Origin: Candidatus Zhuqueibacterota bacterium
GTDB lineage: Bacteria; Zhuqueibacterota; Zhuqueibacteria; Oceanimicrobiales; Oceanimicrobiaceae
NCBI GenBank assembly: GCA_029262005.1
Contig: JAJDAG010000012.1
Coordinates: 3,161 to 67,160 of the forward strand
Reading direction: 5' to 3'
Length of the DNA: 64,000 nt
Shown here: positions 48,412-55,476 of the stretch, one piece after another
Numbering within the stretch: the stretch's first letter is position 1
Layout: each line of letters starts with the position of its first letter
The notes under the pieces: generated by a model
What the model was told of the DNA's origin: nothing
Database searches by the model: none
The model's input: only the letters and a program-made list of their open reading frames with translations
Position numbers and translations under genes: made by a program

Positions 48412-48834
48412 TTGATTGGTACTATCTTTATTAGTGCCTCAATTATTTTTAACATTTCCGTGAGTGCGGTATTCATTGCAGTAAAACTAGATAAGCAGTC
48501 CCTCTTGCAAGTGTTTGGTGCGATTACACTTGCTATGGCACTGCCTTTCACTGTCACATTGATCGGCTATTGGCAAGATAAAGCAGAAAAAAAGATAATC
48601 GTATCGCATATATTTATTCTCTTCTATCTGTTTCTGGAATTATTACTAGACTATATACTCAAGATTCCGTTTAGAGAAATACTTGCACTTCATATTCCGT
48701 ATATTCTTTTCTTCTATGCTGCAACGTTCAACATGATAGTCGTTTCCTTCAAAATAAATAAGAAAATGGGATTTGTCGTGACAGGAACATTTCTGGTATT
48801 GATAGGATGTCTAATTTACTTGTATTTAGGTTGA
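48412..48834 (+). CDS. Hypothetical small integral membrane protein in an AT-rich (~36% GC) islet
   Basis: four predicted TM helices; no recognisable motif; composition differs from the ~50% GC flanks. Confidence 0.3.
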   Translation: MIGTIFISASIIFNISVSAVFIAVKLDKQSLLQVFGAITLAMALPFTVTLIGYWQDKAEKKIIVSHIFILFYLFLELLLDYILKIPFREILALHIPYILFFYAATFNMIVVSFKINKKMGFVVTGTFLVLIGCLIYLYLG

Positions 48835-48987: not shown

Positions 48988-49509
48988 ATGCATACTAAAA
49001 ATTATTCTCAATTCTTGTCAGTGGTGATTTTGACGTTTGTTGCTTGTGTGGTTTTCGCCGACGAAGACATCGACAAAGTTTTGGACAAAGAACAAGCCAA
49101 GTTACAAGCTGAAATCGAGCACAGCCTGGTTTCCCCTTGCTGCTGGAACATGACGGTTGATCAGCACGAATCGGGCACCTCAAGGCAAGTGCGTTTAAAA
49201 ATTGCAGATTTAATAAAGGCCGGTAAGAATAAAGAAGAGATTCTTGATTATTTCGTTGCGCAGCCGCAGTACGGTGAACGAATTCTTGCGACACCATCAC
49301 AGGATAACTGGCTGGGTAAATCCGCTTACTGGTTGATACCACTGTTCCTGGTCTTTGGAGGCAGCGTTGTGATTGTAGTTATTCGGAATTTGTCAAAATC
49401 CGGACAGGCGGTTGCACCCACTGCCGAACAAAAAATGACAAAGGGCCAGGCAGCGAGCAATGTTTACTCTCAACGCGTTGAAAATGAATTGAAAGAATTT
49501 GATACCTGA
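48988..49509 (+). CDS. CcmH/NrfF-like cytochrome c-type biogenesis protein with a variant Cys motif
   Basis: signal peptide; LVSPCCWNMTVDQHESGTSRQVRLKIADLIKAGKNKEEILDYFVAQPQYGERILATP parallels CcmH LRCPKCQNQSIADSNAP...GKSKKEIVDYMVARYGDFV but has adjacent CC instead of CxxC; C-terminal TM helix. Confidence 0.45.
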   Translation: MHTKNYSQFLSVVILTFVACVVFADEDIDKVLDKEQAKLQAEIEHSLVSPCCWNMTVDQHESGTSRQVRLKIADLIKAGKNKEEILDYFVAQPQYGERILATPSQDNWLGKSAYWLIPLFLVFGGSVVIVVIRNLSKSGQAVAPTAEQKMTKGQAASNVYSQRVENELKEFDT

Positions 49510-49934
49510 TGCCCAAACTCGCGCGAATGCATACTGCCGAACATCTCCTCTCTGCGGTGATGCGCAAACATTTTCACGCACCACGTAACCTTGAATTTCA
49601 TCTTGGCGAAAAGAAAACCAAGTGTGATTATGTTGTGCCCGGCCCGCTCTCTGTCGATGACATTCGCAAGGCTGAGCAGTTGGTAAATGAACAAATTCAA
49701 GCAGCACATCCCGTGACTGCTTTTAAAATTACCCGTAAAGAAAATACCGATTACGACCTTTGGAAAGTGCCGGAGACGGCTGAGGAAATCAGAATTGTTC
49801 GCATCGGGGATTATGATGCACAACCATGCAGCGGCGAGCATGTTTCTCTGTCGTCTGAAGTGGGCACTTTTCGGGTGGCCAGTTTTGAGATGCGCGACAA
49901 AGATCGGGTGCGCATCCGGTTTAAGCTAAATTGA
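49509..49934 (+). CDS. AlaX-S-like tRNA editing protein (alanyl/threonyl-tRNA synthetase second additional domain)
   Basis: zinc-binding motifs HTAEHLL and CSGEH at the expected spacing in a ~140-aa protein; TGATG overlap with the upstream gene. Confidence 0.6.
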   Translation: MPKLARMHTAEHLLSAVMRKHFHAPRNLEFHLGEKKTKCDYVVPGPLSVDDIRKAEQLVNEQIQAAHPVTAFKITRKENTDYDLWKVPETAEEIRIVRIGDYDAQPCSGEHVSLSSEVGTFRVASFEMRDKDRVRIRFKLN

Positions 49935-50011
49935 AGCGAATTTGTTAATCAAAAATTTGCTTGACACAACCATTCAATTAGAAATCTAATTCAGTTTAAT
50001 TTGTACGAGCA

Positions 50012-50051
50012 ATCATATTTGATTTATTGAATAAAATCAATCAAATATGAT
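50012..50051. promoter_or_regulatory. Perfect 13-bp inverted repeat ATCATATTTGATT-N14-AATCAAATATGAT immediately upstream of the GTG start at 50062 (candidate autoregulatory operator)
   Basis: read directly; reverse complement of the left arm equals the right arm. Confidence 0.45.
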
Positions 50052-50061
50052 TTTGTGGTGA

Positions 50062-50727
50062 GTGACCGATGTGACTGACACGCAATCATTTGACAAAGAG
50101 TACTATCTGCTTTTGATTGACATCAAGGGCTCCACAAGCCTCACCCAGGCTGACAGAGCCTGGCTTTTTGCTGAATTGGAGCAAAAGTTGGATGAGCTGA
50201 ATCACCATCTTGTGCCGAAACCAGTAGTGCCGCTTGCAATCAATTATGGCGACGAAGTTGCGGGTGTTTTTGACAGCCCTGCTCTGTTCTACCAAATCGT
50301 TGCCAGCCTGCGGGAAACAATGTACCCGGTCACCACCTTCCGCTTTGCAGCGACTTACGGACAGATAGGAATTACTTCAACAGACATTAAGAAAGTTGGC
50401 GGAAAAGTATTTAAGGAAGCGGATAAATATATCGGTCAGCTCAAAAAGAAAAAGAATTTTTGCTGGTGGGCATTGAAAGACAATAGTATGAATGCCAGTC
50501 TCAATGTGCTGACTGAAATGAGCAATGCGTTGCTCGAAAGAATGACAGAGTATCAGCGGACAGTTTGCCGTTACCTGGCTGCGGGTTTCTCGCAAAAGCA
50601 AATTGCAGAAAAATTGGAAAAGCACCCACAATCGGTATCAAATGCAGTGAGGAAAAGTTCGGCAGACAAAGTGGTCAACGCAGGCAAGGTTATTACGGAT
50701 TTATTAAAAAGAAGCGCACATGTTTGA
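50062..50727 (+). CDS. Class-III nucleotidyl-cyclase-homology-like (palm) domain fused to a C-terminal LuxR/sigma-region-4-type HTH
   Basis: YLLLIDIKGSTSL (compare cyclase FADIVGFT) and AINYGDEVAGVF (compare GDxxxAxF); the two Asp are 44 residues apart as in class III cyclases; C-terminal TEYQRTVCRYLAAGFSQKQIAEKLEKHPQSVSNAVRKS HTH. Confidence 0.5.
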   Translation: MTDVTDTQSFDKEYYLLLIDIKGSTSLTQADRAWLFAELEQKLDELNHHLVPKPVVPLAINYGDEVAGVFDSPALFYQIVASLRETMYPVTTFRFAATYGQIGITSTDIKKVGGKVFKEADKYIGQLKKKKNFCWWALKDNSMNASLNVLTEMSNALLERMTEYQRTVCRYLAAGFSQKQIAEKLEKHPQSVSNAVRKSSADKVVNAGKVITDLLKRSAHV

Positions 50728-51094
50728 AATTTTGAGCAAAGCGGTTCCGGCCTTTGCTGTGTCATTCCTGTTGACAACCTGGCTGATCAGGTGGGGAATC
50801 CCGAAACTGGAAACAGACAAAGGCGATGAACCTTTGCCTGAAAGCGGCGCCACCGACAAGATTTTAAACGTTGGCTCTGTCGGCTTCTGGATAGGGTTTT
50901 GTGAGACCTTGTTGGTTTTCACTTTTGTTTACAAAGGCGAATATGGCGCCCTCGCGATCATTATTGGCGCCAAGCAGTTTGTGCGAAAAGAAAATATTCA
51001 GAAAAATCCGTCTTATTACCTTCTTGGCACACTCATCAATATTTCGTTGGCGCTATTGTTTGCTTTATGGGCAAAAGCTTTGATTGGGCCTTAA
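50720..51094 (+). CDS. Small integral membrane protein (3-4 TM) overlapping the preceding gene by 8 nt
   Basis: hydrophobic segments AVPAFAVSFLLTTWLI, VGSVGFWIGFCETLLVFTFVY, YLLGTLINISLALLFALWA; translationally coupled. Confidence 0.4.
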   Translation: MFEILSKAVPAFAVSFLLTTWLIRWGIPKLETDKGDEPLPESGATDKILNVGSVGFWIGFCETLLVFTFVYKGEYGALAIIIGAKQFVRKENIQKNPSYYLLGTLINISLALLFALWAKALIGP

Positions 51095-54662: not shown

Positions 54663-54897
54663 TGTGATTTATACACATTCAAATGACACGCTTGTTGAGT
54701 TCGACTGGACTGAAATCGCGTGCACGACAAGTTTGAACTTGCTGGACTAAGAATATTTTCCGGTGCGGTGCTAAACATGATATTCTTAGTCTTAAAGAAG
54801 TAGCACGGTGGTTTGAAAACAGTGATTACCGCTTCGCCAAATTGCAGTTCCTGGAAATCGGGAAAACGATTGTGATTAAAAAAAAGGGGATGTTTCA

Positions 54898-55476
54898 ATG
54901 AGAATTCACCATCTGTTTTTTGTTTGTCTAGTGACTGTGTTTCTGTCTTCGTGTAGCAACGTAATTGTTCGGAAATCGTATCCGCAGAAATTCCAGGGCC
55001 TGACTCAATTGGTTCTGGCTTCGGAAACGACGAACATGGATTTTGTAGAGGTCAAGAAAACAAAGTTTCTATTTTTGACACTGAGTTCGGCAAAAATTAG
55101 AGTCATTGCCAATGCCACATTTGATTTTTATTGTGATTTTCAAAAAGACGGCTATCAAATACAAGTCAATGAAACGCAAGATGAAATGACGTTTCTGGCG
55201 CCGCCGATTCATGCGAAAAAACCACAATTCAATTCCACGCAGGTCAGCTATCCGGATCGAGGGCTGCTTGTGGATGAAGAGAAGGCAGCGAGAAAAATAT
55301 TACAGGGTTTGAGTAAACGAGTCATGTCAGAGGGTGAAGCGCTGTTACAGGAGCAGTATGTAATTGATGAATGCAGAAAGCAATTAACTACGTTTGTAAC
55401 TGATTTATGCCAAAAACTCGGTTACAATTATAACACGATTAAAGTGGCGTTTTATGGAGAACCCGCGACGACTTAA
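54898..55476 (+). CDS. Hypothetical lipoprotein
   Basis: lipobox LSSCSN; no catalytic motif. Confidence 0.4.
   Translation: MRIHHLFFVCLVTVFLSSCSNVIVRKSYPQKFQGLTQLVLASETTNMDFVEVKKTKFLFLTLSSAKIRVIANATFDFYCDFQKDGYQIQVNETQDEMTFLAPPIHAKKPQFNSTQVSYPDRGLLVDEEKAARKILQGLSKRVMSEGEALLQEQYVIDECRKQLTTFVTDLCQKLGYNYNTIKVAFYGEPATT

Follow-up and report, generated by a model that had tools for sequence, protein, structure and literature searches.

Phased palindromic operators and a cyclase-like palm domain in a satD/satE-like gene pair of a Candidatus Zhuqueibacterota bacterium

Introduction

What does a pair of overlapping genes encode, and how might it be controlled, when it stands directly behind a perfect palindrome in the genome of a Candidatus Zhuqueibacterota bacterium? 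The pair, here called satDE, lies at positions 50,012 to 51,094 of a 64,000-nt stretch of contig JAJDAG010000012.1 (assembly GCA_029262005.1), and this whole stretch is referred to below as the window. An initial annotation, made from the sequence alone, had described a cyclase-like palm domain fused to a helix-turn-helix (HTH), a membrane partner and a palindromic operator, and had likened the pair both to nucleotide-signalling or conflict modules and to SatD/SatE. The locus is a two-gene operon of the catalogued SatD/SatE family, a family that has been named since 2001, and its satD gene is preceded by evenly spaced palindromic sites of a kind that recurs in front of satD genes across Bacteria and Archaea. 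Our preferred reading, held with moderate confidence, is that SatD is a nucleotide-responsive one-component autorepressor coupled to the membrane partner SatE.

Family membership of the satD-like gene

The 221-residue product of the first gene (Table 1) was matched by the Pfam family SatD (PF16264) over residues 30-203 with 30.6 bits and an E value of 3.4e-7, narrowly passing the cut-off of 29. The same family was matched by all 34 aligned subfamily members (best E value 6.2e-10), and Pfam presumably places PF16264 in its nucleotide cyclase clan. In an exhaustive profile search with clusters formed at 50% identity, 1,843 passed E <= 1e-3; at the stricter limits of 1e-10 and 1e-30 the number fell to 498 and 57. 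Almost all of the clusters are 205-230 residues long and align across the whole profile. The family is thus large and uniform in architecture, and the window protein belongs to a divergent subfamily of it, comprising about 57 clusters at E <= 1e-30. The likeness to SatD/SatE that the initial annotation had raised is thereby substantiated for the first gene and, as described below, also for its partner, which is homologous to the C-terminal module of SatE.

The family-wide motifs, conserved in 78 distant representatives, are all present in the window protein: D-x-x-x-S after the first beta strand (beta1), a G-D-E hairpin, R-F at beta4, G-x-[AV]-F-x-x-A, and a C-terminal HTH with Q165 and V192-S193. 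SatD of the Streptococcus mutans sat operon (PF16264) is likewise a protein of about 210-225 residues with a palm, an HTH and these common motifs; the window protein differs from the family in that GG replaces the DG of the MDGxAF motif. Nonpolar satD and satE mutants of S. mutans reportedly show no acid-tolerance phenotype.

Any start upstream of 50062 is impossible because of an in-frame TGA at 50059-61, and the NCBI gene call for this open reading frame (ORF) begins at the GTG at 50071, giving 218 residues. Elsewhere in the family, P0157 (288 residues) is a SatD with a duplicated HTH, and the Holophagae satD (L018:6001-6549) has an apparent frameshift after about residue 180 and no satE, with two operator-like sites retained; this copy is probably decaying.

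Table 1. Coordinates of the satDE features in the window, followed by the upstream neighbouring gene. PWM, position weight matrix.
Feature	Position	Strand	Details
satD-like gene	50062-50727	+	GTG start, 221 residues; Pfam SatD match
Cyclase-homology-like palm domain	50095-50475	+	residues ~12-138; Foldseek, N-domain profile
Key palm residues			D20 (50119-21), S24, G63-D64-E65 (50248-56; D64 codon 50251-53), R94 (50341-43), G113-G114-x-V-F117
LuxR/sigma-70 region 4-type HTH	50482-50718	+	residues ~141-219; recognition helix ~P189-Q190-S-V-S-N-A-V-R-K198
Operator site 1	50008-50027	.	AGCAATC-ATATTT-GATTTAT, 20-bp 7-N6-7 palindrome; PWM 19.45 bits, rank 1
Operator site 2 (promoter-proximal)	50036-50055	.	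ATCAATC-AAATAT-GATTTTG; PWM 17.31 bits, rank 2; 6 nt ahead of GTG
Possible weak third site AGAAATCTAATTCAGTTTAA	49980-49999	.	PWM 4.87, rank ~22 of 63,981
Inverted repeat	50011-50052	.	14-nt perfect arms AATCATATTTGATT (50011-24) and AATCAAATATGATT (50039-52), 14 nt between
-10-like hexamer TAAAAT (putative, weak)	50032-50037	+	overlaps left edge of site 2
satE-like partner	50720-51094	+	124 residues; overlaps satD by 8 nt (ATGTTTGA)
Conserved SatE C-terminal module	50858-51079	+	partner residues ~47-120; invariant E62, K85, R89, YYLLGT
Stand-alone AlaX-type Ala-tRNA editing domain	49509-49934		141 residues; tRNA_SAD, AlaXM-like

Phased operator arrays upstream of satD

The upstream regions of related satD genes contain 20-bp palindromes of the form ATC(A/T)AT-N8-AT(T/A)GAT, in a fuller form ATCAATG-N6-CATTGAT. 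When up to two mismatches are allowed, the 170 nt upstream of satD hold, per unit length, 98 times as many matches to the two half-site motifs as the remainder of the 360 kb of loci. The sites occur in arrays of two to four copies. Of 57 adjacent pairs, 38 have a start-to-start distance of exactly 28 bp and another 4 one of 29 bp. In most loci the proximal site ends 1-6 nt ahead of the start codon. A comparison of eight loci, consisting of the window's relatives and Bacteroidota, revealed a -10-like hexamer (TATAAT, CATAAT, TAAAAT or AATAAT) that extends up to two bases into the proximal site in 7 of the 8, as it does in the window itself; these hexamers match TATAAT at five or six of six positions, with four in L001.

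A PWM was then applied to the window; it was built from 31 sites taken exclusively from other loci, and 63,981 window positions were scored. As shown in Table 1, the two best positions of the whole window lie immediately upstream of satD, and the third-ranked position anywhere in the 64 kb reaches 13.49 bits. Their start-to-start distance of 28 bp is the family mode. A further weak site lies exactly 28 bp upstream of site 1 and is notable by its phasing alone. Sites starting at 50012 and 50040 had also been considered and were rejected, as they score -1.9 and -12.9 bits; they were replaced by those at 50008 and 50036.

The palindrome described in the initial annotation is real and perfect, its arms being 14 nt long and thus one base longer than the 13 reported. 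It is the longest perfect inverted repeat of the window at a loop of up to 30 nt, and in 2000 shuffled versions of the intergenic region (127 nt) a length of 13 nt was never reached. Its two arms are the inner 14 nt of sites 1 and 2, and they are mutual reverse complements because each 20-bp site is itself palindromic. The proposed role as an operator is therefore supported, in the form of two 20-bp 7-N6-7 sites 28 bp apart and not of a single 13-N14-13 element. Two evenly spaced sites in this position would probably let SatD switch off satDE.

The arrays span Bacteria and Archaea, and in most of the following distant SatD loci, too, adjacent sites are 28-29 bp apart, with half-sites that differ from locus to locus: ATACAA/TTGTAT in Aminicenantes, TACAAT-N8-ATTGTA in Methylomirabilales, TCACCC-N6-GGGTGA, TTAnCCC-N6-GGGnTAA on Sphingomonas and Agrobacterium plasmids, and GTTCGCC-N6-GGCGAAC on a haloarchaeal megaplasmid. 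In Hyphomonas neptunium ATCC 15444, two perfect-type sites with 28-bp spacing end 2 nt before the ATG.

The HTH domain and its covariation with the half-site

The C-terminal part of the window protein is matched by Pfam GerE and Sigma70_r4_2 with 18.4 and 18.3 bits, below the cut-offs of 23.5 and 25.7 (E ~0.002), and its sequence matches in the PDB, to RcsB, sigma-H and DevR, are weak. Sigma70_r4_2 is matched in the C-terminal part of 31 of the 34 subfamily members (best E value 5.7e-6), which supports the LuxR/sigma-4-like HTH proposed in the initial annotation.

Residue 190 of the recognition helix, Q or R, covaries with the half-site, ATCAAT or ATCTAT. The helix reads p-R-S-V-S-N-A-K-K in all 14 loci with ATCTAT half-sites and p-Q-S-V-S in the 20 loci with ATCAAT, as well as in the 5 loci in which no site was detected. 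This covariation of helix and half-site points to a direct read-out and, should a genome carry two copies, would also keep the paralogues insulated.

The palm domain: fold and conserved residues

An AlphaFold2 model of SatD, calculated with a 34-sequence alignment, has a predicted local distance difference test score (pLDDT) of 94.8 and contains a beta-alpha-beta-beta-alpha-beta palm at residues 13-101, followed by helices at residues 141-219. Foldseek searches of the PDB with this model returned class III cyclases and GGDEF domains with E values of 8e-5 to 1e-3, including Rv1900c (1ybt) and Ma1120 (4wp8/5d15; E 2e-4, target-normalised template modelling score 0.53-0.56). GTP cyclohydrolase III and Pycsar cyclases were returned too, and Cas10/Cmr2 more weakly (E ~2e-3). 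When the N-domain alone was searched as a sequence profile of 28 diverse family members, the top five PDB matches were all class III cyclases, Rv1900c having an E value of 0.018 and Ma1120 of about 0.05. Structure and sequence profile thus agree with the cyclase-like palm of the initial annotation and place it in a cyclase/GGDEF-type fold. Pfam Guanylate_cyc gave no match to the window protein at E <= 10; Pfam GGDEF did not match it either, the hairpin being NYGDEV and not GG[DE]EF. The palm belongs to the fold superfamily of GGDEF diguanylate cyclases and Cas10/mCpol, and its hairpin YGDE[FVI] resembles GGDEF, but the sequence profile picks class III cyclases instead.

The two-Asp arrangement noted earlier was confirmed, with D20 in LLIDIKGSTSL and D64 in NYGDEVAGVF, 44 residues apart, and the segment RFAATYGQIGI...GGKVF is also present. 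In the profile alignment, D20 falls on the Asp of FTDIVGST, G63-D64 on AGDG, and R94 (fRfavgrGei) on vRiGihaGEv; we take these positions to be the two Asp residues that bind metal and the Arg that binds phosphate in a C1-type half-site. Class III cyclases and SatD thus have in common the first metal Asp in D-[ILV]-x-G/x-S-T/R after beta1, the second in a G-D turn 44 residues on, and an Arg that opens beta4 in R-x-G-x-x-x-G. The conservation of these residues among the 78 distant representatives is very high: D20 77/78, S24 77/78, G63 78/78, D64 78/78, E65 75/78, R94 70/78, G114 78/78 and F117 76/78. Both Asp residues are therefore kept in homologues that are SatD-like, and the N-domain does not fall into an unrelated fold; neither of the two outcomes named beforehand as contradicting the initial annotation was observed.

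The palm of SatD also differs from class III cyclases. It has about 135 residues as against 160-180, and in place of the conserved class III Asn/Arg and Lys/Asp it has the motif [DG]-G-x-[AV]-F-x-x-A, which is invariant there, with F117 and A120 invariant in the helix after G114. In the motif alignment, the position of the base-specifying Lys, three residues ahead of the G in the G-D turn, is occupied by Ile.

Three tandem SatD-SatD fusions (P0224, P0239 and P0263; 413-422 residues) display a complementary decay of the motifs. Unit 1 retains D, GDE and R and has lost MDGxAF, and unit 2 has lost the beta1 Asp, has HE or E for GDE and L for R, and retains MDGxAFYRAR. The pattern matches that of heterodimeric class III cyclases and suggests a composite dimer site, in which the [DG]GxAF helix of one protomer would act in trans on the half-site that the other protomer forms with its Asp and Arg. 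As the fusion proteins are related to one another, they count as one evolutionary observation.

The satE-like membrane partner

The second gene overlaps satD by 8 nt, as the initial annotation had stated, and encodes 124 residues. Its description as a protein with four transmembrane helices was approximately right: in the model, helices at residues 2-26, 54-71, 76-95 and 97-122 give three to four membrane helices. No Pfam family matches the partner; in particular, neither the window partner nor any of 42 homologues was matched by DUF3307 (PF11750) at E <= 10. Foldseek searches with the partner model yielded no significant neighbour among PDB or viral structures. The partner has 159 detectable homologues, many of them on contigs that also carry SatD homologues, and it is more conserved across phyla than SatD (50-70% identity versus 35-54%). 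Among the invariant residues are E62, which lies in the second helix (GFWIGFCETLL), the pair K85 and R89 of a basic helix (GAKEFVRKEKI), and the motif YYLLGTLxN.

A profile of the partner matches the gene directly downstream of satD in all 8 distant SatD loci, with E values of 1e-30 to 2e-5. Short distant partners (111-138 residues) are matched with E values of 1e-30 to 2e-11. In partners of 250-254 residues, for example those of L048 and Halorientalis, it is the last 70 residues that match (E ~1e-12 to 1e-13); their N-terminal part is Pfam DUF3307, which is also their NCBI label ('DUF3307 domain-containing protein') and which in L048 covers residues 4-118, the very part that short partners are without. 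As the profile matches the end of the long partners, the window partner corresponds to a SatE reduced to its C-terminal module, the DUF3307 domain being absent. Compared with S. mutans SatE (DUF3307, PF11750), it is thus a short form of 110-140 residues.

Of the 38 subfamily loci, 24 have a satE-type gene directly downstream of satD, as do all 8 distant ones, often with overlapping stop and start codons. The other 14 subfamily loci comprise 2 truncated contigs, 1 apparent pseudogene and 11 Hyphomonadaceae copies located between trpB and trpA.

Genomic context and distribution

On one side of the pair in the window lie genes for Tol-Pal/CpoB, CcmH and an AlaX-like editing protein, and on the other a convergent leucyl-tRNA synthetase (LeuRS) gene. 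The AlaX-type gene is also directly upstream of satD in the relatives L001 and L040, and relatives with a SatD of only 50-54% identity have preserved the gene order around the pair. A conserved link to leuS was considered and rejected, since the convergent class I aminoacyl-tRNA synthetase of L044 is not LeuRS-like. The guanine-plus-cytosine (GC) content of satDE equals that of the flanking genes, and recent horizontal acquisition was therefore rejected. The window SatD had no match in viral contigs, a phage collection or plasmids; a distant family member matched 8 plasmids. PADLOC gave only weak matches, to the HTH part of CARF3 models (E 5e-5) and to a 2TM effector (E 2e-3). There are no CARF, HEPN or SLATT neighbours, and no defence-island or mobile-element setting was found for the window copy, which is a normal, vertically inherited member of its family.

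The family spans many bacterial phyla and haloarchaea. In the Hyphomonadaceae loci L013-L017, L020, L022-L033 and L036, trpB is separated from a cutA-like gene by satD, with or without satE, and its operator array, and trpA and accD come next; in 11 species satD and the operators are retained and there is no adjacent satE. Other Hyphomonadaceae (L052, L053) have a complete pair between a DUF2975/HTH_26 pair and RNase PH, and the trp-linked genes may be paralogous copies. SatD/SatE pairs were also found on megaplasmids of Halorientalis (pHOS300, L050), Sphingomonas (L049) and Agrobacterium (pAt, L051). All three have 7-N6-7 palindromes of their own, 28-29 bp apart where at least two adjacent sites were scored, and the partner on pAt is apparently truncated to 90 residues.

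Proposed mechanism and alternative explanations

In the mechanism that we favour, the HTH of SatD would bind each 20-bp palindrome as a dimer, up to its own start codon, and dimers on sites phased at 28 bp would probably cooperate, by analogy with lambda CI, giving tight control of satDE. In the window lineage and in Bacteroidota the -10-like hexamer that overlaps the proximal site would tentatively fit such an arrangement. The palm dimer is predicted to bind Mg-nucleoside triphosphate (Mg-NTP) at a composite site between two protomers; Mg-NTP is its most likely ligand because the Asp pair for two metals and the Ser and Arg for phosphate binding are kept. Binding or turnover of the nucleotide would set the DNA-binding state, and catalysis by the palm is possible. 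Through translational coupling, SatE would be made in step with SatD and at a fixed ratio to it, and could serve either as the membrane signal input or as the controlled output, its buried invariant Glu and basic cytoplasmic helix being candidate functional elements.

Several observations weigh against this mechanism or parts of it. The closest homologue of the window SatD (L039, 73% identity), which has the same 8-nt overlap between satD and its partner, lacks a recognisable operator within the 118 nt available ahead of it (L039:1-118); it stands on a short contig behind a different upstream gene, with a GC-rich hairpin-like segment upstream. A generic promoter scan detected no + strand sigma-70 promoter upstream of satD, so that repression rather than activation is assumed from the position of the operators. 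The covariation between recognition helix and half-site comes mostly from one clade and may be partly phylogenetic. As far as catalysis is concerned, the check for the transition-state Asn/Arg residues that had been recommended earlier gave variable residues where they are expected, after G114, as judged from the motif alignment only, and neither they nor the base-specifying Lys are evident; the short length of the palm compared with a canonical cyclase domain makes catalysis uncertain as well. Finally, the 11 loci without an adjacent satE imply that SatE is not always needed in cis.

It is important to mention a background observation that bears on the choice between the possible readings: transposon sequencing (Tn-seq) of Streptococcus pyogenes found satD to be essential in the strains that have it, and 29% of strains are without satD (PMC11323703). 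Essentiality only where the gene is present fits a repressor of something harmful, and this 'essential accessory' status keeps alive the idea of a repressor-toxin cassette, in which an over-produced SatE would be harmful, SatD would repress or neutralise it, and the palm would serve dimerisation or cooperativity without a ligand. A tightly autoregulated, translationally coupled two-gene unit, the stronger conservation of SatE, the patchy distribution that includes plasmids and the weak PADLOC match of SatE to a 2TM effector are all in line with such a cassette. The near-invariance of D20, S24, GDE and R94 in a family of 1,843 clusters would be unexpected, however, for a pure dimerisation domain, and the stable position between alaX and leuS in relatives with SatD about 50% identical, the GC content equal to the flanks, the lack of phage copies among those searched and the persistence of satD without adjacent satE in 11 Hyphomonadaceae species also speak against it; we regard the cassette as unlikely. 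A second-messenger or conflict module, in which SatD would be an active cyclase or oligonucleotide synthase whose product opens or activates SatE in the manner of mCpol or of CBASS/Pycsar-like abortive infection (CBASS, cyclic-oligonucleotide-based anti-phage signalling system), could draw on the intact two-metal site on a cyclase/Cas10-type palm, on the Pycsar cyclases and Cas10 among the Foldseek matches, and on the small membrane protein that adjoins satD. The initial annotation had pointed to a resemblance to such mCpol/SMODS-type logic, which we consider very doubtful: neither PADLOC nor Pfam gave an mCpol or defence-cyclase match, the class III Asn/Arg pair is absent, the neighbours are housekeeping genes (Tol-Pal, CcmH, AlaX and LeuRS; the trp operon; RNase PH) and not defence islands, no phage copies were found, both proteins evolve slowly, and the HTH and the operator array indicate a transcriptional role.

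A variant that keeps the DNA-binding role is that SatD is an active, DNA-scaffolded minimal cyclase or oligonucleotide synthase, in which assembly on the operators or contact with SatE would complete the composite sites, with a product that would act on SatE or on SatD itself. We judge it quite improbable; if true, it would amount to a new nucleotide-signalling system across Bacteria and Archaea. The last alternative concerns the repeat itself, which could act as RNA, either as a hairpin in the 5' untranslated region or as a terminator of the upstream alaX-like gene. The predicted hairpin has -16.9 kcal/mol and z = -3.9 against shuffles, but its stem is AT-rich with G-C pairs at 2 of 14 positions, Rfam gives no match and the terminator scan reports none at the repeat. 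Moreover, the 20-bp sites of the relatives are each self-palindromic and neighbouring sites are not complementary, and both the exact spacing of 28 bp and the HTH covariation belong to the level of DNA, so that an RNA function is extremely unlikely. The autorepressor is the reading that we retain in the comparison below.

Comparison with known systems and significance

SatD can be likened to LuxR/FixJ-type regulators, which have a four-helix sigma-4/LuxR HTH and bind 20-bp palindromes as dimers. Mycobacterial cyclase-ATPase-LuxR proteins such as Rv0386 provide a precedent for a cyclase domain combined with a LuxR HTH. Unlike both types, SatD has no receiver or ATPase module, its palm being fused directly to the HTH, and its operators differ from those of the LuxR/FixJ type in forming phased arrays that abut the start codon. 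The arrays are reminiscent of the lambda CI operators, in which two to four similar palindromes likewise stand at a fixed short spacing over the protein's own promoter region, an analogy that implies cooperative dimers; the lambda sites are of 17 bp at 23-24 bp, whereas those of SatD are of 20 bp at 28-29 bp, and the proteins are unrelated.

In our literature search, no paper was found that gives the fold, ligand, DNA target, operators or mechanism of SatD/SatE, and the searches on SatD and DUF3307 returned nothing beyond the S. pyogenes Tn-seq study and a paper on annotation. The fold assignment may not be new. The phased arrays, the HTH covariation, the finding that short partners are homologous to the SatE module, and the loss of complementary motifs in the fusions appear to be unreported.

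For the window itself the result is modest. The locus offers a defined 48-bp operator, a predicted specificity switch (Q190R together with ATCAAT -> ATCTAT) and the candidate catalytic residues D20, D64, E65 and R94, and H. neptunium ATCC 15444 is a cultured host with a complete genome and a satDE pair upstream of RNase PH (partner gene HNE_3314). Should the palm turn out to be active, SatD would rank as the smallest cyclase-like enzyme of class III type that is coupled directly to DNA binding; a palm that acts only as a sensor would be a new ligand-binding module for one-component regulators.

Other features of the window

Two further features were observed outside the satDE locus. The second-longest perfect inverted repeat of the window, with arms GACTAAGAATAT and ATATTCTTAGTC and 23 nt between them, is intergenic and lies at 54745-54791, before the ORF at 54898-55476. 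An ORF for a 140-residue multi-pass membrane protein without a Pfam match (48412-48834) is located between the cpoB-like and ccmH-like genes, in a patch of low GC content (0.34-0.37).

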